A stretch of DNA of 64,000 nucleotides from an uncultured Alphaproteobacteria bacterium (GCA_963739385.1 CAVUAI010000013.1:30512-94511); one strand, 5' to 3'. Positions 7,017 through 50,087 are shown, counted from the stretch's first letter. Notes: generated from the sequence alone by a model not told the origin. Numbers and translations: made by a program.

Positions 7017-7085
7017 CTCGGCCGGCCTCATGCCGAGGTGCACTACAGCGTTCCGATACAGCGTCGTTGACAGCAACCATCCGTC

Positions 7086-7170
7086 GTCATTGCCGGGCGT
7101 GTCCCGGCAATCCATCCGCTTGCATCAAGCGTCCTTCGATGGATGCCCGGGTCAAGCCCGGGCATGACGA
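7086..7170. repeat. REP-like palindromic intergenic element (family 1, second copy)
   Basis: gtcattgccgggcgtgtcccggcaatccat ... cgatggatgcccgggtcaagcccgggcatgac. It has the same two-hairpin layout as 4735..4825. Confidence 0.7.
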
Positions 7171-7195
7171 GTCGAGAGTTCTGCGCCGCGTACGG

Positions 7196-8218
7196 TCACG
7201 GCGCGTTCAACTGCCGCAGCCGGTCGATGACAGCCGGCGGGCTTTGGTATGCGCGCTCGACCACGTCCCGGATTTGCTCTCCGCCGCGTGGCGCGTTGAT
7301 CTCGAGGCCCAGTTTTTCTCCCTCCGCCAGGAATGCCGGATCGGCGATGGTGGCGACGAACGCCTGGCGCAGCGCAGCCACGCGCTCGGCCGGAACACCC
7401 GGCGGCGCCACGAACGGCCGGCCGAGCGCGAGCGGCGCAAGCCCGGCCTGCATGACGAGTCGGTTCTCGTCGTCTGCCACGAGATCGAGAGCGAACGGAA
7501 CGTCGCCGAGCTCGGCAAGCCTGCCGGCGCCATATTGCACGATCGCCTTTGCGGTCTTGTCGCGCAGCCATGTCGGCCGCGTCGATCGCACCGAGCTGAC
7601 GAAGGCGCTGGGATGGCCGTCGACCTCGCCCCGTTCCATCGCCAGCAGCACGTCGTTCTGCCCGGGATAGCCGTTGATCGCTTTCATCTTCGTGCCCAGC
7701 GTCGCATTCAGGAGCCGGGCGAAGAACGCCGGCGTCGAATTGGCGCCGGAGACGCCAACCGCGACCTCGCGCGTTCTGAGCTCGGTGACGGAGTTGACGG
7801 GCACCGCGTGCCAGAGCAGCACCATGGCGGTCTCAGCACTCGGAGATCCCAGCCAGTTGAACCTGACTGGGTCGTAGCGCGCCTCCTTGGTGCCGAACAA
7901 CGGCTCGAACGGCGTGTTGTTCTGCACGAGCCCGATCACGCCGCCGTCCTTCTCGGCGTTGCTGTAGAGAAAGTTGGTGGCCGTCATGCCGCCGGCACCG
8001 GGCATGTTGCGCACGATGAAGCCCGGGTTGCCCGGCATGTGCTTGCCGATATGGCGCGCCACCGCGCGGGCCACGGTGTCGTAGCCGCCCGCCGCCGCCG
8101 AGCTCACCACGATCGTCACGGTCCGGCCGGCGTAGAAGTCGGTGACCGCGTCGGCCCTGGCCGCCGTCGCGTCGGCGAGAGCGCAAAGCGCCAGCACAAG
8201 CAGGCGTGGTAGCGTCAT
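7196..8218 (-). CDS. Bug/TctC-like periplasmic solute-binding protein (divergent subgroup)
   Basis: Signal peptide MTLPRLLVLALCALADATAARA, then FYAGRTVTIVVSSAAAGGYDTVARAV...NMPGAGG. The length (340 aa) and motif spacing resemble TctC, but the protein is more divergent. Confidence 0.6.
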   Translation of the reverse strand: MTLPRLLVLALCALADATAARADAVTDFYAGRTVTIVVSSAAAGGYDTVARAVARHIGKHMPGNPGFIVRNMPGAGGMTATNFLYSNAEKDGGVIGLVQNNTPFEPLFGTKEARYDPVRFNWLGSPSAETAMVLLWHAVPVNSVTELRTREVAVGVSGANSTPAFFARLLNATLGTKMKAINGYPGQNDVLLAMERGEVDGHPSAFVSSVRSTRPTWLRDKTAKAIVQYGAGRLAELGDVPFALDLVADDENRLVMQAGLAPLALGRPFVAPPGVPAERVAALRQAFVATIADPAFLAEGEKLGLEINAPRGGEQIRDVVERAYQSPPAVIDRLRQLNAP

Positions 8219-8338
8219 TTAGCAAGCCTCAGGTCGGACGCCGGAATGCAACGCTGGTATCCATGAGTCATCGCGCAAACCGCGATTGGCCGGCAAAGTG
8301 CGGCGGTATAGTCTGGAACCATATCAGCGGAGCTAGCG

Positions 8339-9424
8339 ATGGTCATGCCGCGCGTGCCGGCGGTGGTTGTGGCGCTCTGCGCCGTCGCGCTGGCGGCGCC
8401 GCCGGCGGCGGCGGACGAGCCGTACTACCGGGGCAAGCGACTCACGCTCATCATCAACTTTGCCGCCGGCGGCCCGACCGACATCGAAGGCCGGCTGCTC
8501 GCCAAGCACCTCGTCAAGCACGTCGCGGGCAATCCCGGGATCATCGTCCAGAACATGGACGGCGCGGGCGGAATGATCGGCGCCGGCTACCTCGGCGAGG
8601 TCGCCCCCAAGGACGGCACCACGCTCGGCTACTTCACCGGCTCGGCGTGGCGCTACGCCAGCAATCCCGAGCGTTTTCGCGTCGATTTCCGCAGCTACGA
8701 ATTCGTCGCCTACCAGCCCGGCACCAGCATCGCGTATATGCGCACCGACGTGCCGCCGGGCATCAAGGAGCCGGCCGACATCGTCCGCGCGAAGGGCGTG
8801 GTGGCGGGGGGACTGGGCGCCGAGAACTCCAAGGATCTCCTGCTACGGCTCGCGCTCGACATGCTCGGCGTGCCGTACAAATACGTCACCTCCTACCGCG
8901 GCAGCCAGGCGGCGCGGCTGGCCTTGCAGCAGAACGAGATCAACTTGTATGCGGAATCGCCGCCGAGCTATCGCGCCGTGGTCGAGCCGAGCCTGGTGAA
9001 GGAAGGCTCCGCCATCGGGCTGTGGTACGACGCCGATCCGGGCGCCGAGCTCGGGCGGCCGGCGCGCCAGGTCGAGGGGCTTCCGCTGGTCTCGTTCCCC
9101 GCGCTCTACCGCAGGATCAAGGGCGAGCCGCCGTCGGGACAGTTGTGGGACGCCTATCGCACCGTGCTGACCATCAACGGCGCGATGCAGCGGCAGATCG
9201 TGCTTCCGCCTGGTGCGCCGCCGCCGGCGCTCGCCGCCCTGCGGGCAGCCGTGCTCAGGCTCAACGACGACAGGGAGCATGCCGAGGAGACTGCGCGGAC
9301 CATCGGCTTCGTGCCGGAATGGGTTGCAGGCCCCGACACCAACAACGAGGTGCGGGCGGCGATCACCATCTTGCCGGAGATGCGCGCGTTCATCGCCGAC
9401 TATGTGCGGCGCGGGGTGAAGTGA
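8339..9424 (+). CDS. Bug/TctC-like periplasmic solute-binding protein (divergent subgroup, paralog of 7196..8218)
   Basis: Signal peptide, then YYRGKRLTLIINFAAGGPTDIEGRLLAKHL...NMDGAGG. It is clearly paralogous in pattern to the divergent neighbour. Confidence 0.6.
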   Translation: MVMPRVPAVVVALCAVALAAPPAAADEPYYRGKRLTLIINFAAGGPTDIEGRLLAKHLVKHVAGNPGIIVQNMDGAGGMIGAGYLGEVAPKDGTTLGYFTGSAWRYASNPERFRVDFRSYEFVAYQPGTSIAYMRTDVPPGIKEPADIVRAKGVVAGGLGAENSKDLLLRLALDMLGVPYKYVTSYRGSQAARLALQQNEINLYAESPPSYRAVVEPSLVKEGSAIGLWYDADPGAELGRPARQVEGLPLVSFPALYRRIKGEPPSGQLWDAYRTVLTINGAMQRQIVLPPGAPPPALAALRAAVLRLNDDREHAEETARTIGFVPEWVAGPDTNNEVRAAITILPEMRAFIADYVRRGVK

Positions 9425-9529: not shown

Positions 9530-12500
9530 TCAGACGAACACGAAATCCCCGGCATGCACCACGGCGTGGTTCGAGAGCGTGATCGTCTCGTCCTGAAAAT
9601 CGAGGCCGGAATGGATCCGCCACTGGTCGGTGCTGCCGATCTGGGTGAAGGTCGCGCCCTGCGCCTCTGTACCGAAGCCGCTGAACACCAGGAAATCCCA
9701 CTCGTTCACCTGGTCGCGGTTGAAATCGGTAACGGTCGCGCCGTTGGCGCTGCCGGCGAAGAACACGAAGGTGTCGTTGCCGTCGTTGCCGGTGAGCGTG
9801 TTCGCGCCGACGGTGACCAGCGTGTTGGCGTCGCCGTTGCCGGCACCGGTCAGCCCGGAGCCCGTCAGGTACAACGCCTCGACATTGGCCGGCAGAGCGA
9901 AGCTCAACGAAGCCATCACCGAATCGAAACCGCCGTTCGCCGCTTCGACCACCACGTCGGCGGCATTGTTGACGTAATAGAGGTCATCGCCGCCGAGCCC
10001 TTCCAGCGTGTTGGGCCCGCCACTGCTCAGCAGACTGTCGGCATTGTTCGTGCCGGTGCCGGTCAGGCCGGAGCCCATCATGTAGAGCGCTTCGGCGTCG
10101 GCCGGCATCGTGTAGTCGACGCTCGCAAGCACGGTGTCGACGCCGCCGCCGGGCACCTCGATCACGACATCGGCGGCGTTGTTGACGTAATAGAGGTCGT
10201 CGCCGCCGAGCCCTTCCAGCGTGTTGGGTCCGCCGCTGCTGAGCAGCGTCTCGGCGCCATTCGAGCCGATGCCGGTCAGCCCGGAGCCGAGCATGTAAAG
10301 CGCCTCGACAGTGTTGCCGGCCGACAGCGTATAGCTGACGGTCGCCTGCACGGTGTCGATACCGCCGCTCGCATCTTCGATCACCACGTCGCCGGCGCTG
10401 TTGACGTAATAGACGTCGTTGCCGCCGAGTCCGATCAGCGTGTTGGGTCCACTGCTGCTGATCAGGGTCTCGGCGCCATTCGAGCCCGTGCCGGTCAACC
10501 CGGCGCCGAGCATGTTGATCACCTCGACGGTGTTGCTGGCCGGCAACATGTAGTCGACGCTCGCGGCCACCGTGTCGAAGCCGGCGCCCGCCGCCTCGGT
10601 CACCACGTCGCCGGTGTTGCTGACGTAGTAGACGTCATCGCCGATACCGCCCGTCAGGCTATCGATGCCGGCGCTGTCGTACAGCACGTCGTTGCTGTCG
10701 ACGCCGCCGACGGTCACCGTGACCGTCGCCGTATCCCCGCCCGTGATGGTGTAGCTGAAGGCATCGGTGATGGTCAGGTTGGACGCGCCGGAGCCGGGCG
10801 CCGGCAGGTAGTCGAACAGGTGGTTGGGGTCGTAGCTAAACGTGCCGTTGACGTTGACCGTCAGCAGCGCGCCCGACGGCAGCGCGAACTGCGTGCCGAG
10901 CGTGCCGCCCGCTACCGCAGTCACTAAGAAGAGCAGGCTGTCAGGATCGGCGTCGGCCCCCGAGCCGTTGTCGGTGAGCACGTTCCCGGTCGCGATCGCG
11001 CTGTTCTCGGTCGTGGTGACGGCATCGTCCTGCGCCACCGCCGGATCGTCGATGGCGCTGATGACGATCTCGGTCGCTTGCGGGGCGGCACTGTAGTTAT
11101 TGCCGTCAGACAAACCCCACCTCAGCGTGCGCGTCGGATTGGCGCCGAAGTTGGTCGGATTCTCGCTGGTTGACGAGAATTGGACCGCCTGCATGAAAGC
11201 CTGGTAATCCGCGACCGACGCCGGGCGAGTGAACAGAAGGGCGCGCAAGCTGGCATCGTAAGAAAAGTCGATGCCGGAGAAGGTGCCGCTCTGCAACCCA
11301 TTCACGGTCAGGACGTCGCCATCAAACCCGCCATCAGCGATTCTGACCAAGCCTGCGACCAGGTTGACGTCGTCGATGTCGCTCGCCGTAGCGCCCGGCG
11401 AGATCGTCACCGGCGGGTTGTTCTCGGTATACGCAGCGTTTGCGTCAGCCGTCTCCTGCGGGGCGTCGTTCACGGCGGCGATAACGACCGTCGTCGTCGC
11501 GGCCGTGGCGTCCGTGCCATCCGAGACGGTCCATGTCAGGGTCCGTTGCGGGCTTGTGCCGAAGTCCGTGGGATTGTCGCTCGTCGACTGGAATCCGACC
11601 GTCTGCAGCAGCGCCTGGTAGTTCGCGACCGAGCTCCCACCGTTGAAGACCAGCGCGTGCAGCGTCGCGTCCCAGGTGAACGTGATGCCGGTCACGGTGC
11701 CGCTGGTGAGGCCGCCGACGGTCAGGACGTCGCCGTCGCCGGAAAACGAGCCGTCCGTGATCTGCACGCTTGCGAACTCGAGGTCGGTATCGTCGAGGTC
11801 GGAGAGGTTCACCGACGGCGACAGCAGCACCGGGAGCGCGTTCTCGACGAAGCCGACGTTCGGCGCAACGATGACCGCCGGGGCGTCGTTCACCGGATTG
11901 ACGGTGATCGCGATCGTGTCGGTGTCGATGGCGGTCCCGTCGCTGGTCGCGACCGTGAGCGTGTCGGCGCCGTTGAAGTTGAGGTTTCCGGTATAGGCGA
12001 GGCCCCCCAGCGCCGCGTTGATCTGCGCGGCTGTGCCGATGATGGTTACGCTGCCGGTGCCGTTGCCGGCAATGCCGGCGCCGCCGCCGGCGATCACGTT
12101 GAGCGTGCCGCTCGACACGTTGAGCGTGGTGGTGAGCGCGCTGCTGTCGACGTCCGCCACCGACACGCCGGCGATCGGCAGGCTGATGTCCTCGGCGACG
12201 CTCTGCGCGCCCGGCACCGTATTGACCGGGGCGTCGTTCACCGGATTGACGGTGATCGCGATCGTGTCGGTGTCGATGGCGGTCCCGTCGCTGGTCGCGA
12301 CCGTGAGCGTGTCGGCGCCGTTGAAGTTGAGGTTTCCGGTATAGGCGAGGCCCCCCAGCGCCGCGTTGATCTGCGCGGCCGTGCCGGTGATGGTCACGCT
12401 GGCAGTGCCGTTGCCGCTGACGCCGGCACCGGCGATCACGGTGAGCGTACCGCTCGACACGTTGAGCGTGGTGGTGAGCGCGCTGCTGTCGCTGTCCGCC

Positions 12501-15500
12501 ACTGAGACGCCGGCGATCGGCAGGGCGGTGTCCTCGGCGACGCTCTGCGCGCCCGCCACGGTATTGATCGGGGCGTCGTTCTCGGCGGTGATATCGAGGA
12601 TCGTCGTTGTGGTCGTAAAGGCCGCGCCATCCGATATGGACCAGGTCAGTGTCCGTTGCGGACTCGCATTGAAGTCGGTGGGATTGTCGCTCGTCGATTG
12701 GAATGCGACGGTCTGCAGCAGCGCCTGATAGTTCGCGACCGAACTCGCACCTGTCAGGACCAACGCATGCAGCGTCGGGTTCCAGGTGAACGTGATGCCG
12801 TTCTCGGTGCCGCTGGTGGCGCCGTTGGCGGTCAGGGTATCGCCGTCGCCGGGAAACGAGCCGTCGGTGATCTGCACGGCAGCGAAGTTGAGCTCGGTGT
12901 CGTCCGCGTCGGTGAGGCTGGCTGATGGCGAAAGCAATACCGGGGCGGCATTCTCCTGGTAGGTGGCGTCTGTAACCACGAGCGCGGGCGCGTCGTTCAC
13001 TGCCGCGACGCCGATCACTGCCGCCGCCACGTTGCTGTCGTTCGCCCCGTCGTTGACTACGACCTCGATGAGGCGATCTTCCGTGGCGGGATCGTCGCCG
13101 CTGTTGCTGTAGAAAATCTGCTGCAGCGCGGCTTCGTATTCAGCCGGGGTGGCTGAACCGGTGAGCGTGAGGACGCCGGTAAGGGGATTGTAGGCACTCG
13201 CGGTGATCGCTCCCGGCAGGGCCCCGCTGACCGTGAGCAGATCGCCGGGGTGCGGGTTCGTCAGCGTGATCGTCGCGGAAGCGAGCGTGGGGCTGTCGGC
13301 ATCGGTGACGCTGACATCGGTATCGGCGATTGGCACAGCGGCGCCGTTCTCCGTGAATGCCGTCCGGAAAGTGCTGCGAACCGAGCCGCCCGAGTCGTCG
13401 GGGTCGAGGTCCACCACCGGCCCGTTGTTCACGACCGCGACCTGGACGAAGGCCTTTGCCGTGTTGCTGTTACCGGCGCCGTCGTTGACGACGACGTCGA
13501 TGACGCGGGTGGTGGTCGACGGGTTGACGCTGCCGTTGCTGAATTCGATCTGCTGCAGCGCCGCCTGATAGTCGGCCTGGGACGAGGCGCCCGTGAGGGT
13601 GATTGTGTTGGTCCCGGAGCCCGATACCACGATGCTGCCGGGGGCTGCGCCGTTGAACGTCAGAGTGTCGAGCGCCTGCGGGTTGGTCAGCGTGATCGTC
13701 GCCGAGGCGAGGTCAGGACTGTCGCTGTCGATGATCGAAGCATCGTTATCCGCGATGGCGACTGCCGGTCCGCCTTCCGTGAACTCGGTGAGATAGTTTG
13801 CGCCGGGCGTCGTCGAACTGTTCGCGTCGAGATCGAGCGCCGGGGCGTCGTTCACCGGATTGACGGTGACCGCGATCGTGTCGGTGTCGATGGCGGTCCC
13901 GTCGCTGGTCGCGACCGTGAGCGTGTCGGCGCCGTTGAAGTTGGGGTTGCCGGTATAGGCGAGGCCCGCCAGCGCCGCGTTGATCTGCGCGGCTGTGCCG
14001 GTGATGGTTACGCTGCCGGTGCCGTTGCCGGCAATGCCGGCGCCGCCGCCGGCGATCACGTTGAGCGTGCCGCTCGACACGTTGAGCGTGGTGGTGAGCG
14101 CGCTGCTGTCGATGTCCGCCACCGACACGCCGGCGATCGGCAGGGCGGTATCCTCGGCGACGCTCTGCGCGCCCGGCACGGTATTGACCGGGGCGTCGTT
14201 CACCGGATTGACGGTGATCGCGATCGTGTCGGTGTCGATGGCGGTCCCGTCGCTGGTCGCGACCGTGAGCGTGTCGGCGCCGTTGAAGTTGAGGTTTCCG
14301 GTATAGGCGAGGCCCCCCAGCGCCGCGTTGATCTGCGCGGCTGTGCCGGTGATGGTCACGCTGGCGGTGCCGTTGCCGGTGACGCCGGCACCGGCGATCA
14401 CGGTGAGCGTACCGCTCGACACGTTGAGCGTGGTGGTGAGCGCGCTGCTGTCGATGTCCGCCACCGAGACGCCGGCGATCGGCAGGGCGGTGTCCTCGGC
14501 GACGCTCTGCGCGCCCGGCACGGTATTGACCGGGGCGTCGTTCACCGGATTGACGGTGATCGCAATCGTGTCGGTGTCGATGGCGGTCCCGTCGCTGGTC
14601 GCGACCGTGAGCGTGTCGGCGCCGTTGAAGTTGAGGTTTCCGGTATAGGCGAGGCCCCCCAGCGCCGCGTTGATCTGCGCGGCCGTGCCGGTGATGGTCA
14701 CGCTGGCGCTGCCGTTGCCGGTGACGGCGGCGCCGCCCCCGGCGATCACGTTGAGCGTGCCGCTCGATACGTTGAGCGTGGTGGTGAGCGCGCTGCTGTC
14801 GCTGTCCGCCACCGAGACGCCGGCGATCGGCAGGGCGGTGTCCTCGGCGACGCTCTGCGCGCCCGGCACGGTATTGACCGGCGGGGCGTTCGGCGGCGGG
14901 GCAACGACGTGCATGTAGGTCGTCGCCGTGTTGCTGTTGAAGGTGCCGTCGTTGACCGTCACCGTGATGATGCGGTCGCCGGTGAACGGCGTCGTATCGG
15001 GGCTGCTGTAGACCACCTGGCGCAACGCGGTCTGATAGCTCGCGAGCGAGGCCGCACCGCTGAGCGTGATGACACCGGTGCTTGAATTGTAGCTCGAAGC
15101 CGTGATGCCGGACGGCAATGTGCCGGCGATGGAGAGCAGGTCGTCCGGCTGCCGGTTGATTCCGATCGTGATCCTGGCCGACTGGATCGTCGTGCTGTCG
15201 GCGTCGGTAATCGTAACGTCGGTGTCGGCAATCGGAATGCCCGGCCCGCCGCCGGTGGCTGTCGCCGTATAGTCCGCTCCGCCGCCGTTGGAGTTGTTGG
15301 CGTCCAGATCGAGGACCGGAGGAGCGGCAGCACTCGTTACCGTGATGATCGCGCTTGCTTCGTTGCTCCACTCCCGGCCGTCGAATACGTGGACGTCGAT
15401 CGTCTTCACGGTGCCGGCTGGCCGGGTCGTGCTGAACTCGACCTGCCGGATCGCGGCCTCATAGGCGGCATGCGAGGCCGACCCGAACAGCGTGAGGGTG

Positions 15501-15913
15501 CCGTCAAAGGAATTGAAAGACGTGGCGAAAATTCCAAACGGCAACGTGCCGTTGATCGCAAGCAGGTCGCCGGGATCCGTACCCCTGATGTCGATCTCCG
15601 CCTGGGAGATCAGGAAGTCGTCGATGTCGTCGATGTCGACGTCGGTATCGGCAATCCTCACGGCCGGACCGCCTGATGTGACCTCTGCCCGATAGTCGTC
15701 GCCAAAAGACGTCGAGTTGTTGCGGTCGAGATCGAGCTCCGGCCGGAAGTTAAAGGTGAAGAGCGTGGGCGACGCGACGCTGCTGATCCAGTTGGCCGAG
15801 TTGTTGATGGCGGCGAACACCTCGGTGGGGGATCCGCTGTTCGGTCCAGCATAGATCGCATTGTCGAAGGCGACCGCGGCCGCGTTGAGATCCAGCGTGA
15901 AGCCGGGCGGCAA
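9530..15913 (-). CDS. Giant repeat-rich RTX-type adhesin / presumptive type I secretion substrate, main body (at least 2127 aa; the frame stays open upstream to 16057)
   Basis: It contains tens of beta-sandwich modules of about 100-116 aa (LDLDANNS...ITLTN...; VNDAPVNTVPGAQSVAEDTALPIAGVSVAD...). The C-terminal part has Gly/Asp calcium-binding repeats (LTGGIGDDVYYV, LIGLGGNDVYYV, LEGLGGDDLYYV, LTGNDGNDTFVF). The tail is acidic and hydrophobic, ending ...HAGDFVFV. The track start at 15911-15913 is TTG. Confidence 0.9.
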   Translation of the reverse strand: MPPGFTLDLNAAAVAFDNAIYAGPNSGSPTEVFAAINNSANWISSVASPTLFTFNFRPELDLDRNNSTSFGDDYRAEVTSGGPAVRIADTDVDIDDIDDFLISQAEIDIRGTDPGDLLAINGTLPFGIFATSFNSFDGTLTLFGSASHAAYEAAIRQVEFSTTRPAGTVKTIDVHVFDGREWSNEASAIITVTSAAAPPVLDLDANNSNGGGADYTATATGGGPGIPIADTDVTITDADSTTIQSARITIGINRQPDDLLSIAGTLPSGITASSYNSSTGVITLSGAASLASYQTALRQVVYSSPDTTPFTGDRIITVTVNDGTFNSNTATTYMHVVAPPPNAPPVNTVPGAQSVAEDTALPIAGVSVADSDSSALTTTLNVSSGTLNVIAGGGAAVTGNGSASVTITGTAAQINAALGGLAYTGNLNFNGADTLTVATSDGTAIDTDTIAITVNPVNDAPVNTVPGAQSVAEDTALPIAGVSVADIDSSALTTTLNVSSGTLTVIAGAGVTGNGTASVTITGTAAQINAALGGLAYTGNLNFNGADTLTVATSDGTAIDTDTIAITVNPVNDAPVNTVPGAQSVAEDTALPIAGVSVADIDSSALTTTLNVSSGTLNVIAGGGAGIAGNGTGSVTITGTAAQINAALAGLAYTGNPNFNGADTLTVATSDGTAIDTDTIAVTVNPVNDAPALDLDANSSTTPGANYLTEFTEGGPAVAIADNDASIIDSDSPDLASATITLTNPQALDTLTFNGAAPGSIVVSGSGTNTITLTGASSQADYQAALQQIEFSNGSVNPSTTTRVIDVVVNDGAGNSNTAKAFVQVAVVNNGPVVDLDPDDSGGSVRSTFRTAFTENGAAVPIADTDVSVTDADSPTLASATITLTNPHPGDLLTVSGALPGAITASAYNPLTGVLTLTGSATPAEYEAALQQIFYSNSGDDPATEDRLIEVVVNDGANDSNVAAAVIGVAAVNDAPALVVTDATYQENAAPVLLSPSASLTDADDTELNFAAVQITDGSFPGDGDTLTANGATSGTENGITFTWNPTLHALVLTGASSVANYQALLQTVAFQSTSDNPTDFNASPQRTLTWSISDGAAFTTTTTILDITAENDAPINTVAGAQSVAEDTALPIAGVSVADSDSSALTTTLNVSSGTLTVIAGAGVSGNGTASVTITGTAAQINAALGGLAYTGNLNFNGADTLTVATSDGTAIDTDTIAITVNPVNDAPVNTVPGAQSVAEDISLPIAGVSVADVDSSALTTTLNVSSGTLNVIAGGGAGIAGNGTGSVTIIGTAAQINAALGGLAYTGNLNFNGADTLTVATSDGTAIDTDTIAITVNPVNDAPAVIVAPNVGFVENALPVLLSPSVNLSDLDDTDLEFASVQITDGSFSGDGDVLTVGGLTSGTVTGITFTWDATLHALVFNGGSSVANYQALLQTVGFQSTSDNPTDFGTSPQRTLTWTVSDGTDATAATTTVVIAAVNDAPQETADANAAYTENNPPVTISPGATASDIDDVNLVAGLVRIADGGFDGDVLTVNGLQSGTFSGIDFSYDASLRALLFTRPASVADYQAFMQAVQFSSTSENPTNFGANPTRTLRWGLSDGNNYSAAPQATEIVISAIDDPAVAQDDAVTTTENSAIATGNVLTDNGSGADADPDSLLFLVTAVAGGTLGTQFALPSGALLTVNVNGTFSYDPNHLFDYLPAPGSGASNLTITDAFSYTITGGDTATVTVTVGGVDSNDVLYDSAGIDSLTGGIGDDVYYVSNTGDVVTEAAGAGFDTVAASVDYMLPASNTVEVINMLGAGLTGTGSNGAETLISSSGPNTLIGLGGNDVYYVNSAGDVVIEDASGGIDTVQATVSYTLSAGNTVEALYMLGSGLTGIGSNGAETLLSSGGPNTLEGLGGDDLYYVNNAADVVIEVPGGGVDTVLASVDYTMPADAEALYMMGSGLTGTGTNNADSLLSSGGPNTLEGLGGDDLYYVNNAADVVVEAANGGFDSVMASLSFALPANVEALYLTGSGLTGAGNGDANTLVTVGANTLTGNDGNDTFVFFAGSANGATVTDFNRDQVNEWDFLVFSGFGTEAQGATFTQIGSTDQWRIHSGLDFQDETITLSNHAVVHAGDFVFV
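9770..10710 (-). repeat. RTX / hemolysin-type Ca-binding repeat block inside the adhesin gene
   Basis: Four to five units of about 60 aa with the pattern GxGGxDxxYV....DxVxE...GGxDTVxASVxYxL......ALxxxGSGLTGTG. Confidence 0.75.
11880..12575 (-). repeat. Two near-identical 348-bp tandem coding repeats (116-aa module) in the adhesin gene
   Basis: The string ggggcgtcgttcaccggattgacggtgatcgcgatcgtgtcggtgtcgatggcggtcccgtcgctggtcgcgaccgtgagcgtgtcggcgcc restarts at 11880 and 12228. The plus-strand shadow ORFs at 12018 and 12366 are also 348 nt apart. Confidence 0.85.
13842..14880 (-). repeat. Three near-identical 342-348-bp tandem coding repeats in the adhesin gene (same module as 11880..12575)
   Basis: The same string restarts at 13842, 14190 and 14532. 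The encoded module is VNPVNDAPVNTVPGAQSVAEDTALPIAGVSVADxDSSALTTTLNVSSGTL.VIAG...VTITGTAAQINAALGGLAYTGNLNFNGADTLTVATSDGTAIDTDTIAIT. Confidence 0.85.
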
Positions 15914-40263: not shown

Positions 40264-40292
40264 TGCGACGCGACGCCACTTCTATCCGGGAC

Positions 40293-40612
40293 GTCATTCC
40301 GGCCGAGCGAGCGCAGCGAGCGAGAGCCGGAATCCAGTAAACACCGGACGTGGTTGTCTGACACAGTGCCCACAGGAGGGCTGGCGAGTACTGGATGCCC
40401 GCATGCGCGGGCATGACAGCGGAGGGTGCGGCTCTGCCGAAATCGCGACTAATGTTTGTGGCGCCTGCCGCCGCCTCCATGCGGATGTCATTCCGGCCGA
40501 GCAAGCGAAGCGAGCGAGAGCCGGAATCCAGTAAGCACCGACCTTCACCGTGTGTGCATTGGTCGATGCCCGAGGCTGGCGAGTACTGGATGCCCGCATG
40601 CGCGGGCATGAC
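40293..40612. repeat. Tandem duplication (period about 195 bp) of a composite REP unit (family 3 plus family 2)
   Basis: gtcattccggccgagc.agcg.agcgagcgagagccggaatccagtaa occurs at 40293 and 40487. ctggcgagtactggatgcccgcatgcgcgggcatgac occurs at 40381 and 40576. Confidence 0.8.
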
Positions 40613-40665
40613 CGGGTTTGCGGCTTCTGCAGGAATCATTCGCGGGCGGGCAGCCAGTGCGGATC

Positions 40666-42580: not shown

Positions 42581-43357
42581 ATGTCTCGCATTCGCAGGAA
42601 TCCACCGGGGGTCGATTCCAGGCTCCTGATCAAGGATGCGGCGAAGCTGATGCCGGAACCGACCCGGCGCCTGTTCCTGCGCGGCGGCGCCAGTCTCGGC
42701 GCGCTCGCCTTCCTCGCGGGCTGCGACATCGTCGACGGTCCGTCGGCGGAGCACGCTTTGACCAAGATCTCGTATTTCAACGACGGCGTGCAGGCGTGGC
42801 TGTTCAACCCCAACCGGCTCGCGCCGACCTATCCGGAAAGCGCGGTGACGCGTCCCTTCCCTTTCAACGGCTATTACCCCGAGGACGAGGCGCCCGAGGT
42901 CGACAAGGACGACTACAAGTTCGAGGTCGGCGGCATGGTCGACGACAAGAAATCGTGGACGCTCGATGAGCTCTACGCGCTGCCGCAGGAAACCCAGATC
43001 ACCCGCCATATCTGCGTGGAGGGCTGGAGCGCGATCGGCAAGTGGACCGGCACGCCGCTGCGCGAATTCCTGCGCCGCGTCGGCGCCGATACGCGGGCGA
43101 AATACGTCTGGTTCCGCTGCGCCGAGGGCTATTCCACCTCGATCGACATGCCGACGGCGCTGCACCCGCAGACCCAGATGACCTTCCAGTTCGACGGCGC
43201 GATCCTGCCGCGCAAGTACGGCTTCCCGATGAAGGTGCGCATCCCGACCAAGCTCGGCTTCAAGAATCCCAAATACGTGATGGAGATGGCCGTGACCGAC
43301 AAGTATCTCGGGGGCTACTGGGAGGACCAGGGATACAACTGGTTCAGCGGGAGTTGA
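42581..43357 (+). CDS. Molybdopterin-dependent oxidoreductase (MsrP/YedY-like, sulfite-oxidase fold) with Tat leader
   Basis: ATG 42581 follows AGGAGAG. The Tat leader is TRRLFLRGGASLGALAFLAGC. CVEGWS, KYGFPMKVRIP and KLGFKNPKYV are typical of the oxidoreductase molybdopterin-binding domain. Confidence 0.8.
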   Translation: MSRIRRNPPGVDSRLLIKDAAKLMPEPTRRLFLRGGASLGALAFLAGCDIVDGPSAEHALTKISYFNDGVQAWLFNPNRLAPTYPESAVTRPFPFNGYYPEDEAPEVDKDDYKFEVGGMVDDKKSWTLDELYALPQETQITRHICVEGWSAIGKWTGTPLREFLRRVGADTRAKYVWFRCAEGYSTSIDMPTALHPQTQMTFQFDGAILPRKYGFPMKVRIPTKLGFKNPKYVMEMAVTDKYLGGYWEDQGYNWFSGS

Positions 43358-43750
43358 GTACTACAAACTTGCCAAGCAATATTCATGAATGTGGTTCAAA
43401 CACATCATGGATGACACTAGACAGGGATCAGATTATCAATAGCGACTATGGCAACAGGCTGGCAACGAGCGTGCGGAGACGCAAGGTAGAAACAGCACGA
43501 CGTTCGAGTCGAGCCTAGCGCAGTGCCGCCACTCTAGCGCCGCCTCTTGTCGGGAACCGCACCCCGTCCGCATGAAGGACAAGGCGTGACCAAACCGGCC
43601 TGCCACGCGCGCTCGAACTGCTCGCCGCCAAAAGATCGCAGCTCAGCATCGCGCGGAACATAGCGATCCGCTATCGCACGATTATGTCGGCAGTCGACTG
43701 CGGCCAGCCATCCGTGGGCGCCGTTGGCTCACAGCACAACAAATAGTCTG

Positions 43751-43779
43751 CTGACACGTAGCATTAAATGATGTATTCT
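43751..43779 (+). promoter_or_regulatory. Putative sigma70-type promoter for the islet operon
   Basis: CTGACA (43751-56), 17 nt, TATTCT (43774-79), about 29 nt upstream of ATG 43808 in an AT-rich stretch. This is a pattern match only. Confidence 0.3.
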
Positions 43780-43807
43780 ATCTAGGGTTGTTGAGAGTAT
43801 TCGGACT

Positions 43808-44365
43808 ATGCACAGACATTTCTGGCCCGTTGTCGCACTCGTCCTCATTTGTCCCATCCTTTGCCGCGGCGCCGAACCTTCGTTTTCGGAAGCCGTAGGG
43901 CTGTTAAGCCAGGAGCGAAGCTACGCCGAATCGGGCGCGGCATTGGTTAAGCAGTACGCGCCGGGCGACATAGAAGCCCGGCGGCTCTATGCGGACGCCA
44001 AGGGCGCCTTTGACGGCTTGATCGAGCAGCTGCTGGCGGACCTCGCGCAAAACAACGATCCGGAACTCTCCGCGGCATTTCGCGAGCGGATCGACGCCGC
44101 GGCGATGAAGCGCGTTGCGTTCAGTAAGCGCGCAGACGAGGTCCTGAAAGCCAATGTGCCAGAGGGGGCCAAGAACGCCATTCTGGTTGCGATTGCAGAA
44201 TCGTTAGCAAAAACTCCCGTCGAGATAGTGAAAGAGCTGTTCGGGGGCGGAATGACCATCTGGAAAGAATGGCGGGGTGTTAGCACCGAACGCCGCAAGC
44301 AGATAACCACGCGGATTGAGGCACAGCGATGGAAACCTTTTGCCGAGATCCCTCCCGCGCTTTGA
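43808..44365 (+). CDS. Exported all-helical protein of unknown function (185 aa), first gene of the islet operon
   Basis: The signal peptide is MHRHFWPVVALVLICPILCRGA|EP. The mature part is Ala/Glu/Lys/Arg-rich with heptad-like helices, has no Cys, and shows no motif I recognise. Its 3-prime end overlaps the next gene by 37 nt. Confidence 0.7.
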   Translation: MHRHFWPVVALVLICPILCRGAEPSFSEAVGLLSQERSYAESGAALVKQYAPGDIEARRLYADAKGAFDGLIEQLLADLAQNNDPELSAAFRERIDAAAMKRVAFSKRADEVLKANVPEGAKNAILVAIAESLAKTPVEIVKELFGGGMTIWKEWRGVSTERRKQITTRIEAQRWKPFAEIPPAL

Positions 44366-47277
44366 ACGCGACCAGGATTGTTGCCCTGCTAATCGGGCTG
44401 CTTTTGCCCGCAGAAGTCCTCCGCGCGCAGGAAGTCGACAAGGACGGCCTCTACAGCCAGCCGTTTTTGGTCCTTGACCCTGAGATGCACGCCGACGCTA
44501 TCACGGCCACGGCTGTGGACGCAGGAGGCCGCTATATCGTAACCGGCTCATACGATAAGACGGTGCGCGTCTGGTCGGGCAACGATGGACGTCTCTTGCG
44601 CACCATCCGGATGCCGAGCGGTCCGGAGTACGCAGGCCAAGTTAATACGGTCGCGTTATCGCCTGATGGCAATACGATTGCAGCTGCCGGCGGGAGCCCG
44701 CACATCTTTCTATTTGACCGCGCCACGGGACGTCAAGTCTTGCGCATGGGACTCCCAACAAACGACTCCATCATTAATAAGCTGGCATTATCGCACGATG
44801 GCCGCAGGATTGCCGCGGGTATCCAAAATCCATTTAGCCTCCGTCTGTTTGACCTGGATGGCCCGAATGAAATTGCCTTCGATGACGAATATAAGGAGTC
44901 AATATACGGGATCTCCTTCGACGCCGCCGGGCGCATTGCGACCGCATCTGAAGACCACAAACTTCGGCTTTATGACCGTCATCTTAAGCTAATACGCAGC
45001 GCCCGTGCGCCGGGTCGCCCTCCGCTGCAGCCGTTCCAAATTGCCTTCTCGCCCGACGGCAAACGCCTCGCTGTTGGATATGGTCCCGAAACGTCCACAC
45101 CGCGTGTGGATGTTGTGGACGGCCGTACCCTAGCCGCGATTTTTGTGCCGCCCATGAAAGGTTACAGCAGCGGGCGGTTAACTCGCATTGCGTGGTCCAA
45201 GGATGGCAGCATCCTCTATGCCGGCGGAACTACTACGTCGCGGGACGGTGTCAGCAAGCTAGTTTTCGCGTGGAAAAACGGTGGTCGCGGTCCCGCTCAG
45301 GTTTTTCCAGCGGGATCAGAAACCATTTCAGAGATTCGGGAACTCTCCGGAGGCCGCATCGTCGTTGCGTCTATGCGTCCTAGCCTGTCCATTTTTGATC
45401 GGGGAGGCACGGTCCTACGGCAAATCGACCCGACGACTGGGGACTTCCGACAACAAGCAAAGGCCTTGAAAGTCAGTCCAGACGGAAACACAGTCCTGTT
45501 TAATTTCGCGGGTGCAGACGACAAGTCAATAGCTGCTTTCGACATAAGCAGGCGAGCACTTGACATCGCTCCAAACCCGCGTTCGGGGCTCGTGGCTCCC
45601 CGCATTGAGGGACTTCCAATCACTGACTGGGAGAATAAAACAAACCCAAAACTTGGAGGGCGCCCTCTCACAGATGATAATTTTACCTCCCGCAGCTTGG
45701 CCATTGCGCGTGACGCTAGCAGTTTCTGGCTCGCGAGGGATTGGGATCTTCGCCACCTCGACGCCGACGGCAATTTGATCCGGCAAATCAATGCCGTAAC
45801 CATTCCGTGGGCCGTGAACCTCGCGGCCGACGATCGGTTGGTGATCGCAGCGCATGGTGACGGCACGATCCGCTGGTATCGGAGCGCAGATGGCGTGGAA
45901 ATCCTGACGTTTTATCCTCACGCAGACCGCAAGCGATGGGTTGCGTGGACACCCCTCGGCCATTACGCGGCCTCGCCAGGAGCCGAGGATTTTATCCAAT
46001 GGCAGGTTAACCGCGGCCTCGATCAGGAACCTATTACATATTCTGCGTCGCGATTTCGCGATCAGTTCTACCGGCCGGACGTGATCGAGCGCGTGCTCGA
46101 AACGCTCGATCCTAAGGCGGCGCTCGAGGCGGCTGACGCCGCCGCGGGTCGCACACGCAGTATTGTCAAGTCAATCACCGAATACACCCCACCTCGTGTC
46201 GCCATTGTCGATCCAGCGGACGCAACATTCGTCCAACGGCCGGAACTCGTTGTGGCATATACGATTGAGGACCGTCCAGGCACTGCGATTAGACGGATCA
46301 GATTAATGCTCGATGGAAGCGTAGTCGCGGAAGAAAAAAATCGGACGGTTGCCCAAGATGGCCGGATGGCGGGTGAGTTCAAGGTTTCGCTTCAAAGCGA
46401 TCAATCTTTAGTAACATTGATATTGCTCGCCGAGAATGAACATGGCACCAGCGATCCGTCCAGTGTACGCCTCCGCCGCAATGTTACCACTGATGACCAC
46501 AAACCGACGCTCTATGTACTTGCGGTTGGCGTCGGGGAGTTCAAAAACCATCCACACCTCAAGCTCAATTTTGCCCACGCTGACGCGAACGCCTTTGTGG
46601 AGCGCGTTGTGAGACAGGAACATGGGCTTTACAGTCGGGTTTTGGCACAAACCCTAGTGAACGAGCAGGCGACGGCAGAGGCAATTCTGAAGGGCCTCGA
46701 ATGGTTGGAGCGAAGTATGAGCTCCCGTGACGTGGCGGCTGTGTTCTTCTCTAGTCATGGGGCGAATGACACAAACCGACAGTTCTACCTGCTGCCACAT
46801 GACGTGAACGTTCTAGACGAGATTACCCTCCGCCGCAGCGCCCTCAAATATGTAGACCTACGTGACACTCTGGTACGCCTCGCAGAACGAGGCAAAACTT
46901 TGCTCTTCCTCGATGCGTGCTATTCCGGCAACGTTCTCCCCGGTGCAAAACAAGTAGCGCCACCGGACATAGATATGGTGGCGGCTGATCTGGCGAGCAC
47001 CGAGGGCGGCGTGGTCGTCTTCAGCTCTTCTACAGGTAAACAGTTTTCAATGGAGTATCCGGAACTTGGCCACGGGGCATTCACGGCGGCACTCCTGGAG
47101 GCTTTCGACGGCAAGTCCGACCGGCCCCCACCCTGGCTCCGTGTCAGTGACCTTGAAATCTGGCTCACAACGCGTGTCAAGGAATTGACGAAGGGCGCGC
47201 AGACACCGCGGACAACAGTCCCCGGCGAGCGCTTCATTAACCCGCGCGTTTTCATGATGCAGCACCAGACACGCTGA
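44329..47277 (+). CDS. Exported WD40/beta-propeller array, Ig-like module and C-terminal caspase-like (peptidase C14) protease, 982 aa
   Basis: ATG 44329 lies 8 nt after TGAGG. The leader is TRIVALLIGLLLPAEVLRA|QE. WD40-type blades include GGRYIVTGSYDKTVRVWS, ALSPDGNTIAAAG, SHDGRRIAAG, GRIATASEDHKLRLYD, FSPDGKRLAVG, VSPDGNTVLF and AAHGDGTIRWYR. The caspase p20-like core is TLYVLAVGVGEF...DVAAVFFSSHG (His810, 46756-58) ...TLLFLDACYSG (Cys864, 46918-20). Confidence 0.85.
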   Translation: METFCRDPSRALNATRIVALLIGLLLPAEVLRAQEVDKDGLYSQPFLVLDPEMHADAITATAVDAGGRYIVTGSYDKTVRVWSGNDGRLLRTIRMPSGPEYAGQVNTVALSPDGNTIAAAGGSPHIFLFDRATGRQVLRMGLPTNDSIINKLALSHDGRRIAAGIQNPFSLRLFDLDGPNEIAFDDEYKESIYGISFDAAGRIATASEDHKLRLYDRHLKLIRSARAPGRPPLQPFQIAFSPDGKRLAVGYGPETSTPRVDVVDGRTLAAIFVPPMKGYSSGRLTRIAWSKDGSILYAGGTTTSRDGVSKLVFAWKNGGRGPAQVFPAGSETISEIRELSGGRIVVASMRPSLSIFDRGGTVLRQIDPTTGDFRQQAKALKVSPDGNTVLFNFAGADDKSIAAFDISRRALDIAPNPRSGLVAPRIEGLPITDWENKTNPKLGGRPLTDDNFTSRSLAIARDASSFWLARDWDLRHLDADGNLIRQINAVTIPWAVNLAADDRLVIAAHGDGTIRWYRSADGVEILTFYPHADRKRWVAWTPLGHYAASPGAEDFIQWQVNRGLDQEPITYSASRFRDQFYRPDVIERVLETLDPKAALEAADAAAGRTRSIVKSITEYTPPRVAIVDPADATFVQRPELVVAYTIEDRPGTAIRRIRLMLDGSVVAEEKNRTVAQDGRMAGEFKVSLQSDQSLVTLILLAENEHGTSDPSSVRLRRNVTTDDHKPTLYVLAVGVGEFKNHPHLKLNFAHADANAFVERVVRQEHGLYSRVLAQTLVNEQATAEAILKGLEWLERSMSSRDVAAVFFSSHGANDTNRQFYLLPHDVNVLDEITLRRSALKYVDLRDTLVRLAERGKTLLFLDACYSGNVLPGAKQVAPPDIDMVAADLASTEGGVVVFSSSTGKQFSMEYPELGHGAFTAALLEAFDGKSDRPPPWLRVSDLEIWLTTRVKELTKGAQTPRTTVPGERFINPRVFMMQHQTR

Positions 47278-47409
47278 GGAGACCATGAAGCCAAAGTGCC
47301 TCGCACTGGGCCGCTTGCAAGCTGGCAGCGGGGTCGCCTGCCGCGCACCGATGTGCCGCCACCGATCCTGACTGTCTGGCAATAAAGCCGCGCTCGCTCT
47401 TGGACCGTA

Positions 47410-48768
47410 CTAGGTCGGCTTTGCGGGGATGCCGTCGTCGCTCATCCGTTGTTCCACTCTTTCTGTTAGATGTGCATGGGAGCGGGAGTTGAGGGGAGGA
47501 TAAGAATTTTCCGCCGCCGGCGATGGGACTTCGGTAATAAGCCGCGCGCCGCGATGGAACGTGATGTAGTCCCACAGCCAGGTGAACGCCACGATGAAGC
47601 GGTTCTTGAGCCCGATCAGGAAATAGATGTGGGCCACGCTCCAGAACAGCCATCCCACGAAACCCTTGAGCTGCAGGCGGCCGAACTTCACCACGGCGGC
47701 GCGCCGTCCGATGGTCGCGAGATCTCCGAGATGGCGATAGCGAAACGGCGGCAACGATCGCTTTGAGACGCGTGCGGCAATGAGCCGCCCGACATAGTGG
47801 CCCATCTGCTTGGCGGCCGGCGCGACCCCGGGAACCGGCTGCCCCTTCGGATCGCGGACGGCAGCAACGTCGCCGATCACGAACACGTCGGGATGGCCCG
47901 GAACCGACAGGTCCGGACCCACGATCACGCGCCCGGCGCGATCGGGCTCCACCCCGAGCCAGCGCGCGACCGGCGAGGCGACGACGCCCGCGGCCCAGAT
48001 GACGGTGCTGGCGTCGATGCGGCCGGGATCGAGATCGACGCCGCGCGCGTCCACGCTCGTGACACGGGTGGAGGTCCGCACGTCGACGCCCATGCGCGTG
48101 AGCGCGCGCCGGGCATAGTCGGACAGATCGTCAGGCAGCGTGGGCAATATGCGCGGACCTGCTTCGAGCAGGATGATGCGCGAACTGCGGGGGTCGATGC
48201 GCCGGAAGTCCTTGGCGAGCGTCTGGCGCGCGATCTCGGCGATGGCTCCGGCCATTTCCACGCCGGTGGCGCCGCCACCCACGATAACGAAGGTGAGCAG
48301 GCGCTCACGCTCGGCCTGGTCGCGGGCAAGCTCGGCATGCTCGAACGCCAGCAGGATGCTGCGGCGGATGCGGGTGCCGTCCTCGATGCGCTTAAGTCCG
48401 GGTGCGAACTCAGCCCAGGCGTCATGTCCGAAATAGGAGTGCGTCGCTCCGGTGGCGATCACGAGATAATCGTAGGAGATCGGACCGGCACCGGTCAGAA
48501 CGCGCCGGCCCTCGGCGTCGACGCCGACGACCTCCGCCATCAGGACCGTGGCGTTCGACTGCCCGCGCAGGATGTGCCGGATCGGCCAGGCGATCTCGGC
48601 CGGCGAGAGCGCGGCGGTCGCGACCTGGTAGAGCAGCGGCTGAAAGCAATGATGGTTCTGGCGATCGATCACGGTGACGTCGACGGCGGCGCGGGCCAGC
48701 GCCCTCGTGGCTTCAAGCCCGCCGAAGCCGGCACCGACGATCACGACGTTGGGACGCTTCTGTGACAT
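47410..48768 (-). CDS. ndh: Type II NADH dehydrogenase (NDH-2)
   Basis: Starts at [19 protein letters not shown] (ATG 48766-68). It has a second dinucleotide motif ([15 protein letters not shown]) and the motif GDVA. 452 aa. Confidence 0.9.
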
Positions 48769-48974
48769 GCGCGTTCCTTTCGGGCCGACTTTACCCCGCG
48801 ATGAGCGATGCGACACCTGCGCTTGTGCCAAATCCGAGCCTGCAAGTTCCGCCGCTCGCGCGTTGCGGTCCGGTGGCGACGGCGGCGGAGCACCCGATCC
48901 GGCGGTCTCCTTGCCAAGCCCGGCGCGGGCCTTTAGCAATCCGCACGGAAACGCATCGAGCGAGGCACCGTGCA

Positions 48975-50087
48975 ATGGCGACCCACAAGCTCCTCCTTCT
49001 CGCCGGCGACGGCATCGGTCCCGAGGTGATGGCCGAAGTCAAAAAGCTCATCGCCTGGATGAATGCGCATGGGCTCGGCACCTTCGAGACCGAAGACGCG
49101 CTGGTCGGCGGCTCCTGCTACGACGCCCACAAGGTCGCGATCACCGACGAGACCATGGCCAAGGCGCATGCGGCCGACGCCGTCATCTTCGGCGCGGTCG
49201 GCGGACCGAAGTGGGATGCCGTGCCCTATGACGTGCGGCCGGAGGCGGGGCTGCTGCGCCTGCGCAAGGATCTCGGCCTGTTCGCCAACATCCGCCCCGC
49301 CATCTGCTATCCCGCGCTGGCGGAATCCTCGAGCCTCAAGCGCGAGGTGGTGGACGGGCTCGACATCATCATCCTGCGGGAACTGACCGGCGGGGTCTAT
49401 TTCGGCGAGCCGAAAACCATCACCGATCTCGGCAACGGGCAGAAGCGGGCGGTCGATACCCAGGTCTACGACACCTACGAGATCGAGCGCATCGCCCGCG
49501 TCGGCTTCGAGCTCGCGCGCAAGCGCCGCAAGAAGGTCACCTCGATGGAGAAGCGCAACGTCATGAAAACCGGCGTGCTCTGGCACGAGGTGGTGAACCA
49601 GGTGCACGCCCGCGAGTTCAAGGACGTGACGCTCGAGCACCAGCTCGCCGACGCCGGCGGCATGCAGCTCGTGCGCTGGCCCAAGCAGTTCGACGTGATC
49701 GTTACCGACAACCTGTTCGGCGACATGCTGTCCGACATCGCGGCCATGCTCACGGGGTCCCTCGGCATGCTGCCCTCGGCGTCGCTCGGCGAGGTCGATC
49801 CCAAAACCAAGAAGCGCAAGGCCATGTACGAACCGGTGCATGGCTCCGCGCCCGACATCGCCGGCAAGGGGGTGGCCAATCCGATCGCGATGATCGCGTC
49901 GTTCGCCATGGCGCTGCGCTACTCGCTGAATATGAGCAAGGAGGCCGACCGGATCGAGCAGGCGATCGCCGCCACGCTCGCCAAGGGGCTGCGCACGGCC
50001 GACATCAAGTCCGACGGCGCCAAGATCGTGACGACGACCCAGATGGGCGACGCCATCATTGGCGAGATGGAGACGCTCGCGGCATGA
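48975..50087 (+). CDS. leuB: 3-isopropylmalate dehydrogenase
   Basis: [19 protein letters not shown] (ATG 48975), [19 protein letters not shown] and [15 protein letters not shown]. 370 aa. Confidence 0.95.

Follow-up and report, generated by a model that had tools for sequence, protein, structure and literature searches.

We have analyzed an islet of low G+C content in a stretch of 64,000 nucleotides from an uncultured alphaproteobacterium (GCA_963739385.1 CAVUAI010000013.1:30512-94511), which is referred to as the window throughout; all positions count from its first nucleotide. The islet is 4.1 kb of foreign DNA in a soil alphaproteobacterium related to the Xanthobacteraceae, acquired by a recent horizontal insertion between the gene for an MsrP-like protein and ndh, and it carries two overlapping genes that form a co-inherited unit. 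The working names of these genes are A (43808-44365) and B (44329-47277). B is predicted to encode an exported protease that combines WD40 propellers with a C-terminal caspase domain of the C14 family, and A a small exported helical protein that may serve as its dedicated partner. The insertion and the two-gene unit, taken jointly, are very likely to be as described here. For the explanation as a whole (insertion, exported C14 protease, helical partner, and engagement of the protease by a loop of the partner) we estimate a probability of about 0.6.

Insertion of the islet between msrP and ndh

The G+C content of the islet is 57.5%, compared with 65.9% for the entire window, and it is the lowest among all 4-kb segments (background mean 0.657, standard deviation 0.022). 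The decrease begins directly after the TGA of the msrP-like gene, and the background level is regained near 47500-47600. The G+C content of third codon positions (GC3) is 0.68 in A and 0.61 in B, against 0.80-0.88 in nine flanking genes; no lower GC3 occurs in the window. The codons AAA, ATT, TTA and GAT occur at 16.3, 23.1, 6.0 and 25.7 per thousand codons in the islet and at 4.5, 4.5, 0.5 and 15.2 per thousand, respectively, in the comparison set. An initial annotation of the window, made from the sequence by eye, had reported an abrupt shift in composition at this point, the loss of the third-position bias of the neighbouring genes and the enrichment of these four codons, and the computed G+C and GC3 profiles, which differ clearly between islet and flanks, together with the codon counts agree with it in each respect. 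The strong contrast suggested by its hand counts of single 60-nt lines did not hold up to the same extent; the lowest line does contain 23/60 G+C, but the averages are only 34.5/60 in the islet and 39.7/60 in the flanks. The difference in composition between islet and flanks is genuine but moderate.

The ends of the inserted segment are marked by a perfect 13-bp direct repeat, AGCGGGAGTTGAG, whose two copies are 4135 nt apart (Table 1) and which is the sole perfect direct repeat of at least 13 nt within 43200-47650. The presence of the repeat at both junctions indicates a duplication of 13 bp of target sequence. The true insert thus comprises 43359-47493 (4,135 bp, including one copy of the repeat). 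The left edge reported initially, immediately after the msrP-like TGA, was exact, whereas the right edge lies at 47493 instead of 47409, ~85 bp beyond the position first given.

The closest relative locus that we found (L009), with an MsrP protein 91% identical to that of the window, has an empty site. Nucleotide homology between the window and this locus breaks at 43357 and restarts at 47517, and L009 has only one copy of the 13-bp site, with nothing inserted. There the convergent msrP-like gene and ndh overlap by 14 bp at the point of insertion; such an adjacency in relatives had been proposed initially as a check on horizontal acquisition. The ancestral stop codon of ndh is the TCA at 43344-43346, beside the left copy of the repeat. 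In the window, ndh now continues for 23 codons past the L-N-S-R of the right copy to a stop at 47410; since homology to relatives restarts only at ~47494-47517, these last ~23 codons and the stop lie within inserted DNA. The msrP-like gene has therefore remained intact after the insertion, while ndh has gained a tail of ~23 residues.

A wider survey, with the MsrP-like protein as query and one genome per species, yielded 80 Xanthobacteraceae loci, which include uncultured metagenome-assembled genomes (MAGs; ≤91% identity), Pseudolabrys, Rhodoplanes, Bradyrhizobium, Rhodopseudomonas, Nitrobacter and Afipia. The order msrQ-msrP-(ndh)-leuB is kept in all 80 loci, and neither A nor B was found at the msrP-ndh site in any of them. 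The foreign G+C, GC3 and codon usage, the 13-bp repeat, the empty site of L009 and the absence of the pair from all 80 loci establish the islet as a recent horizontal insertion, as had been proposed from the sequence. In locus L001 the homologous pair resides in a genome of 59% G+C and has the same composition as that genome.

A and B are the only genes of the islet, and their open reading frames (ORFs) overlap by 37 nt (44329-44365). The leader ahead of A has no other ORF of more than 56 amino acids (aa). A tRNA scan of the islet was empty, a search against Rfam gave no match, and a Pfam scan of A and B found no integrase, transposase, nucleoside triphosphatase (NTPase) or nuclease domain. 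The islet is thus as first described: two overlapping genes behind a leader of ~450 bp, with none of these elements. No recombinase and no att-like tRNA was found for the insert, and among 12 inverted-repeat pairs none is situated at both of its ends (43359, 47480). Of the features of insertion sequences, transposons and integrative elements the insert therefore shows target duplication, and lacks a transposase or integrase of its own, inverted repeats and a tRNA or att site. Leader and tail had no match among 175 loci (blastn, tblastx), PLSDB plasmids and phage genomes, and the donor context was not recovered. A sigma-70-like sequence, CTGACA-17-TATTCT, is located at 43751-43779, 29 nt before the start of A, although the number of such sites equals the chance expectation; the promoter and terminator scans as a whole were at chance level.

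The interval between msrP and ndh or leuB ranges from ~0.1 to 7 kb among the relatives and contains differing genes (L010, L014, L064, L070, L072, L078). L014 (10780-12880) has membrane-protein ORFs that by eye are TctA/TctB-like, and L010 (10780-15200) is without ndh and has ~4.5 kb of other ORFs instead. As the content of the msrP-leuB interval differs in L010 and L014, the site tolerates rearrangement, and it appears to be a recurrent place of gene gain and loss. The mechanically called ndh ORF of the window (47410-48975, minus strand) has 521 aa, while the orthologues in L009 and L014 have 435 and 419 aa and begin with M(S/A)Q(Q/A)RP. The true start of ndh in the window is probably near 48770, and the upstream extension, which overlaps the ORF on the leuB side, is likely not translated.

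The two-gene unit and its products

Of 85 loci with an A homologue (30-82% identity), 72 have a WD40-caspase gene of ~980 aa beside it on the same strand, 49 in the order A-B and 23 in the order B-A; the other 13 are mostly contig ends. In homologues with 81, 58, 52, 34 and 35% identity the WD40-caspase gene is directly downstream of A, in a different neighbourhood each time, and upstream of the B homologue in a Nitrosomonas MAG is an A-like gene that can be aligned along its entire length. The identities of A and of B to the window pair are closely correlated (r = 0.98, 43 pairs). Between the window and L001 the homologous stretch coincides exactly with the two ORFs and extends no further. 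The 37-nt overlap of start and stop is kept in the window, in L001-L008 and in L090. No third conserved gene was found across the pair loci; a dCTP deaminase gene upstream of the pair in seven loci was rejected as a third component, as it is restricted to one subclade and reflects lineage synteny. A and B are a co-inherited two-gene unit. The recurrence of the pair in unrelated neighbourhoods and the lack of a third conserved gene bear out the initial suggestion of a self-contained module, and the two proteins co-occur as a pair in other genomes, a point that had been proposed initially as a check.

Two metagenome proteins that join parts of A and B were considered as 'Rosetta stone' fusions and rejected. 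P0278 (603 aa) has the A domain (residues 53-186) followed by B from ~residue 555, with both propellers skipped; P0300 (256 aa) has the B signal peptide and first WD40 blades joined to the C-terminal half of A. Both proteins derive from neighbouring A and B genes, joined by natural deletion, rearrangement or assembly, and count as evidence of adjacency only. At L089 (6001-9416), on a MAG contig, the pair looks decayed: A is without a hydrophobic N-terminus, and the B homology is split over two frames (6341-7321, 6726-9413), with a gene call of only 756 aa. A solo A-like gene (29% identity, hmmsearch E 1e-40) is found at L163 (3987-5568) and L167 (2015-3598), with no WD40-caspase gene within 3-5 kb; it adjoins a gene of the PEBP (phosphatidylethanolamine-binding protein) family. 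At L095 (1780-8480; MAG GCA_013285365.1) a B homologue without A lies amid other envelope-type genes: upstream of it are genes for a GNA1162-like/TPR protein and for a DUF4384 protein, and downstream is one for an LTXXQ (CpxP/Spy-like) protein. Elsewhere in the B family, such neighbours may serve as partners instead of A.

The ATG of B is preceded at 7 nt by a GAGG Shine-Dalgarno motif. In the AlphaFold2 (AF2) model of the protein (predicted local distance difference test score, pLDDT, 86; predicted template-modelling score, pTM, 0.70) the N-terminal helix spans residues 9-25, and the subsequent domains are as given in Table 1. Pfam matches are to WD40 (87 bits) and to PF00656 Peptidase_C14 (55.5 bits, cut-off 21.4, residues 730-961). 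The top Foldseek hits are tandem 7-bladed propellers; eukaryotic tandem propellers dominate the search with full-length B and make it uninformative on the caspase domain, which on its own had no match to PDB chain sequences at E≤1. D752, H810, G811, D862 and C864 are invariant in an alignment of 31 family members. D752 is in the motif FAxxDA after strand 1 and D862 is two residues before the cysteine; by motif position, with no structural superposition, they match D95 and D211, the S1-pocket residues of TbMC2 (PMC6426788). All characterised C14 members other than animal caspases cleave after Arg or Lys through an acidic S1 pocket (PMC5756287). Since the His-Cys dyad and both acidic S1 aspartates are present in addition to the C14 profile, B should cleave after Arg or Lys, and we infer that it is a C14 protease of the orthocaspase/metacaspase type with this specificity.

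Immediately after Cys864, residues 866-879 are disordered in the model (pLDDT <50) and contain conserved basic residues in 31/31 sequences; the motif is GAK in the clade of the window and GRRG-like elsewhere. A loop in this position, right after the catalytic cysteine, is the usual place of autoprocessing in caspase-type enzymes. Homologues of B number more than 3,300 at E≤1e-10; most have 950-990 aa, the same architecture and ~40% identity, and they extend over Proteobacteria, Acidobacteria and Desulfobacterota. Where named, they are called 'caspase family protein' or 'WD40 repeat protein'. The propellers are the fastest-evolving part of B (61-62% identical among close relatives, versus 83% for the caspase domain), and many of their residues are invariant across phyla.

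A has a predicted signal peptide at ~residues 1-22, followed by six helices (AF2 model, pLDDT 88.9, pTM 0.81). No hit was obtained with Pfam, NCBIfam, PADLOC or PHROG profiles, and Pfam scans of 33 individual A sequences at E≤1 gave scattered chance hits only. The fold search (Foldseek) was equally unproductive, with best E-values of 0.38 in PDB and 0.22 in BFVD and template-modelling (TM) scores below 0.5; weak hits to plant invertase/pectin-methylesterase inhibitors and talin reflect generic helical bundles and were not used. We found 73 homologues by word index and 286 by profile, all 'hypothetical' and without Pfam domains; those listed by profile are almost all metagenomic. An exhaustive HMMER search (E≤1e-3) puts the family at 725 clusters at 50% identity. 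The most conserved features are the YAxAKAxFDGLIEQL sequence of helix 2, a D-P-x-x-S turn, two invariant tryptophans, and a loop, P-E-G-A-K/R (~residues 118-122), of lower model confidence, in which the basic residue is present in 33/33 sequences. This residue is followed by Pro in about two thirds of the sequences and by Asn in the A protein of the window.

One metagenome protein, P0323 (289 aa), combines in a single gene call the C-terminal end of a CHAT domain and, after it, an A-like domain preceded by a lipoprotein-type signal (LLCLPAC). CHAT is another caspase-fold protease, and because P0323 joins both, A-type partners may also accompany CHAT proteases.

Both A and B are predicted to leave the cytoplasm. 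Signal peptides were judged by a rule of thumb (basic n-region, hydrophobic core, small-x-small motif). Across 31 B and 33 A N-termini the sequence varies, while most keep at least one Arg or Lys, 10-15 hydrophobic residues (Kyte-Doolittle 10-residue maximum >2) and an Ala-x-Ala-type motif, which in most homologues of both proteins sits just before the conserved mature start. Distant A homologues (e.g. P0188-P0192, P0168, P0182) have twin-arginine RRxFL-type motifs (RRTFL, RRRFV), which suggests twin-arginine (Tat) export of a folded protein; the clade of the window has R-H at this position and looks Sec-type. The members without a hydrophobic segment (P0021, P0028, P0058, P0161, P0166) are mostly truncated calls or belong to the frameshifted pair of L089. 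An Ig-like sandwich, as predicted in B, is typical of exported proteins. The conserved character of the N-termini in both families is consistent with the export signals that had been assigned initially to both products.

Table 1. Features of the insert and its products; residue numbers refer to protein B.
Feature	Position	Strand	Remarks
Left repeat copy	43346..43358		holds last msrP-like codons and TGA; minus strand reads L-N-S-R, then stop
Leader	43359..43807	+	449 bp, orphan, non-coding, 54.9% G+C
A	43808..44365	+	185 aa, predicted exported helical protein
B	44329..47277	+	982 aa, predicted exported WD40-caspase protease
B signal peptide (predicted)	residues 1-33
B two WD40 beta-propellers	residues ~45-565
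B helical linker	residues 573-606
B Ig-like sandwich	residues 623-717		seven strands
B Peptidase_C14 domain	residues 727-976
His810 codon	46756..46758	+	predicted catalytic; motif SSHG; invariant in 31 family members
Asp862-Ala-Cys864 codons	46912..46920	+	motif DACYSG; D862 and C864 invariant; Cys864 predicted catalytic
Insert tail	47278..47480		minus strand of 47410-47480 codes new C-terminal extension of ndh
Right repeat copy	47481..47493		minus strand reads L-N-S-R inside ndh; stop no longer follows

Elsewhere in the window, an intergenic tandem duplication of ~195 bp is found at 40264-40665, between sodC and a minus-strand gene of 378 aa. It comprises a 58-nt unit with copies at 40289 and 40483 (93% identical) and a 39-nt unit with copies at 40379 and 40574 (100% identical), which contains the GC-rich palindrome GGATGCCCGCATGCGCGGGCATGAC; the duplication looks like a repetitive extragenic element. 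The minus strand at 9530-15913 has a very long ORF of ~2,127 aa with a GC3 of 0.88.

Proposed mechanism and rival explanations

The explanation that we favour may be summarised as follows. A foreign segment of 4,135 bp entered the site where the convergent msrP-like and ndh genes overlap at their 3' ends, with duplication of 13 bp. A would bind B, in the periplasm or outside the cell, as a dedicated helical partner, and its flexible P-E-G-A-K/R loop, with the invariant basic residue, would be offered to the active site of B, where it would either mimic a substrate and act as a brake or be cleaved, with a change in the activity of A. The disordered basic loop after the catalytic cysteine of B (GAK; GRRG elsewhere) could be an autoprocessing site, and the propellers would select the actual targets of B. 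The engagement of the A loop is put forward tentatively and is, on balance, doubtful; the basic residue in 33/33 A sequences and the basic residues after the cysteine in 31/31 B sequences are in its favour. As to the biological role, candidates may be envelope protein turnover, competition or defence. The initial annotation had linked caspase-WD40 proteins with conflict and programmed cell death; this link is one of analogy only, and the evidence speaks neither for nor against a role in defence.

Several points weigh against this explanation. Among five sampled B homologues of ~40% identity, four lack an A gene within 4-5 kb; B-type proteases thus do not generally need A, and A marks a sub-branch of B. 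A few A homologues, namely those of L163 and L167, have no nearby B despite room on the contig. Pro after the basic residue argues against efficient cleavage at the loop, which favours the brake over the substrate. The signal peptides were called by a rule of thumb. Finally, the insert has neither a recombinase nor a terminal inverted repeat that would account for its insertion.

The pair could instead be an extracytoplasmic conflict system, although we regard this as unlikely. The propellers would sense a periplasmic factor of an invader or competitor (phage protein, bacteriocin or secreted effector); the caspase would then cut A at its basic loop, and the resulting fragment would damage the membrane or envelope, killing or protecting the cell. 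The combination of a small 5' gene with a caspase fusion resembles the EACC1-caspase arrangement, in which the protease frees a pore-former (PMC7159879; PMC12642450), but A is without a strongly hydrophobic hairpin, has no fold match to pore-formers and is conserved as much as the caspase domain rather than fast-evolving. The greater divergence of the propellers among close relatives (61-62% versus 83% identity for the caspase) would suit a sensor under such pressure, yet their invariant residues across phyla suggest a conserved ligand and not a diversifying sensor. The module is horizontally mobile and sporadic, and BrnA and PIN genes occur in the neighbourhoods of L001 and L089; toxin-antitoxin-type genes are nevertheless seen in only 2 of ~6 independent neighbourhoods, most of which contain ordinary metabolic genes, and PADLOC gave a weak single-domain hit only. 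In its strongest form, which is more doubtful still, the pair would be the first caspase-based surveillance outside the cytoplasm, with propellers that detect a periplasmic foreign protein and a cleaved A that becomes an envelope-active effector. If true, this would make the pair a periplasmic counterpart of EACC1 and gasdermin logic.

It is likewise unlikely that the pair belongs to envelope housekeeping, with B degrading or processing periplasmic or outer-membrane proteins and A acting as an adaptor or chaperone and not as a substrate, much as Prc, a periplasmic protease, is steered by NlpI, a helical lipoprotein. Both proteins appear exported, the uniform length and architecture of B over three phyla would fit a conserved cellular target, and translational coupling suggests a stoichiometric complex. 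The absence of the module from its locus in 80/80 related genomes, on the other hand, means that it is dispensable, and a pure adaptor role would leave the invariant basic residue of the A loop unexplained. Other B homologues adjoin periplasm-type genes (DUF4384, GNA1162-like lipoprotein, LTXXQ), but A has no fold similarity to TPR or LTXXQ proteins.

Improbable, in our view, is the proposal that the N-terminal segments are uncleaved anchors or mis-called starts and that both proteins are cytoplasmic, like known caspase-WD40 defence proteins. In the survey by Asplund-Samuelsson et al., N-terminal transmembrane helices were not distinguishable from signal peptides (PMC3501461), and the same reservation applies to our rule of thumb; in most of the 64 sequences, however, the segments are at the extreme N-terminus, with Arg or Lys before and an Ala-x-Ala-type motif after them. 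The five family members that are without a hydrophobic segment are chiefly the truncated calls or the frameshifted pair mentioned above, and the twin-arginine motifs of distant A homologues, the Ig-like sandwich of B and the lack of the NTPase usual in cytoplasmic caspase-WD40 sensors all speak for export. That the islet is no recent import at all, but an ancestral locus lost in relatives or an assembly or binning chimera, is very improbable, for although the window is probably from a MAG and the content of the msrP-leuB interval varies among relatives, a chimeric join would not give a 13-bp duplication at both junctions together with a preserved ndh stop, relatives would not have ended up with overlapping msrP and ndh ends through repeated loss, and the GC3 of the islet is ~0.2 under that of every neighbouring gene.

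Comparison with known systems

The insertion of an exported C14 protease with its helical partner, which remains the preferred explanation, has implications beyond this genome. Bacterial caspase homologues are mostly discussed as cytoplasmic death or defence proteases, whereas the very large B family (more than 3,300 sequence clusters) appears exported, with a substantial sub-branch that is linked to A, a partner family not catalogued so far (~700 clusters at 50% identity). The pair offers a simple two-gene handle on the roles of envelope caspases, be it inhibitor-controlled proteolysis, effector processing or sensing. The locus itself is a clean natural insertion without a recognisable recombinase, for which exact junctions, target duplication and empty site can be compared.

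The nearest described relatives of B are the orthocaspases and metacaspase-like C14 proteins with WD40 repeats, which share the p20-type domain, the His-Cys dyad and the acidic S1 aspartates (PMC3501461, PMC5756287). In the 2012 survey, WD40 was the commonest type of added Pfam domain in prokaryotic metacaspases (10.9% of sequences), and N-terminal hydrophobic segments, possible signal peptides, were noted in the WD40-metacaspase fusions (PMC3501461). The surveyed WD40 caspases are, however, mostly of the caspase-NACHT-WD40 form or have an N-terminal caspase, and are presumed cytoplasmic; the order in B is signal peptide, two propellers, Ig-like sandwich and C-terminal caspase, with no NTPase. 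A dedicated partner gene is not mentioned in those surveys (Asplund-Samuelsson 2012; Klemencic and Funk 2017). Since no NTPase is present among 28 Pfam hits or in the model, the pair is not a STAND-type sensor, and it lacks the hallmark of the STAND/NLR-like caspase-NACHT-WD40 proteins.

The EACC1-caspase systems resemble the pair in that a small constant protein is encoded beside a caspase fusion (Kaur et al. 2020, PMC7159879; Evans et al. 2025 preprint, PMC12642450), and in the characterised example the small protein is cleaved by the caspase (PMC12642450). The model 'caspase, EACC1-associated type' (NF047832) is also the best named model for the B caspase, although its 73.6 bits are below the cut-off of 140. 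EACC1 differs from A in having a single transmembrane helix with alpha+beta extensions on the cytoplasmic side, while A is a helical bundle of ~160 residues with a predicted signal peptide and no EACC1 domain. The caspase of EACC1 systems is N-terminal, with variable C-terminal domains, and that of B is C-terminal. With the models of PADLOC-DB v2, searched per protein, A had no hit and B weak ones only (caspase 2.8e-6, HEAT-ARM 2e-4). The pair had been noted initially to fit poorly with known defence systems, and it matches no described system in PADLOC.

Gingipains (C25) and clostripain-like C11 enzymes are exported cysteine proteases of the caspase-haemoglobinase fold with specificity for Arg or Lys, as predicted for B, and gingipains likewise have an Ig-like domain beside the catalytic domain. 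They belong to other MEROPS families and have neither propellers nor a helical partner gene; B matches the C14 model only. Analogies for the relation between A and B are provided by staphopain-staphostatin and Prc-NlpI, in which a protease is blocked or steered by a small dedicated protein; inhibition often works through a loop that occupies the active site in the manner of a substrate. Staphostatins are cytoplasmic beta-barrels and NlpI is a TPR lipoprotein, with no relation to A in sequence or fold.

Searches of full texts on exported or periplasmic WD40 caspases, with subscription journals mostly outside coverage, turned up no description of the pair or the A family, a negative that is not conclusive. 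The islet had been regarded initially as the best candidate in the window for an undescribed system, and this holds for the A family and for the exported pairing but not for B, which, since WD40-metacaspases with possible signal peptides were surveyed in 2012, belongs to a catalogued kind and has more than 3,300 relatives. Compared with the systems described so far, then, it is the partner family A and its pairing with an exported protease that appear new, while B is not new in kind.

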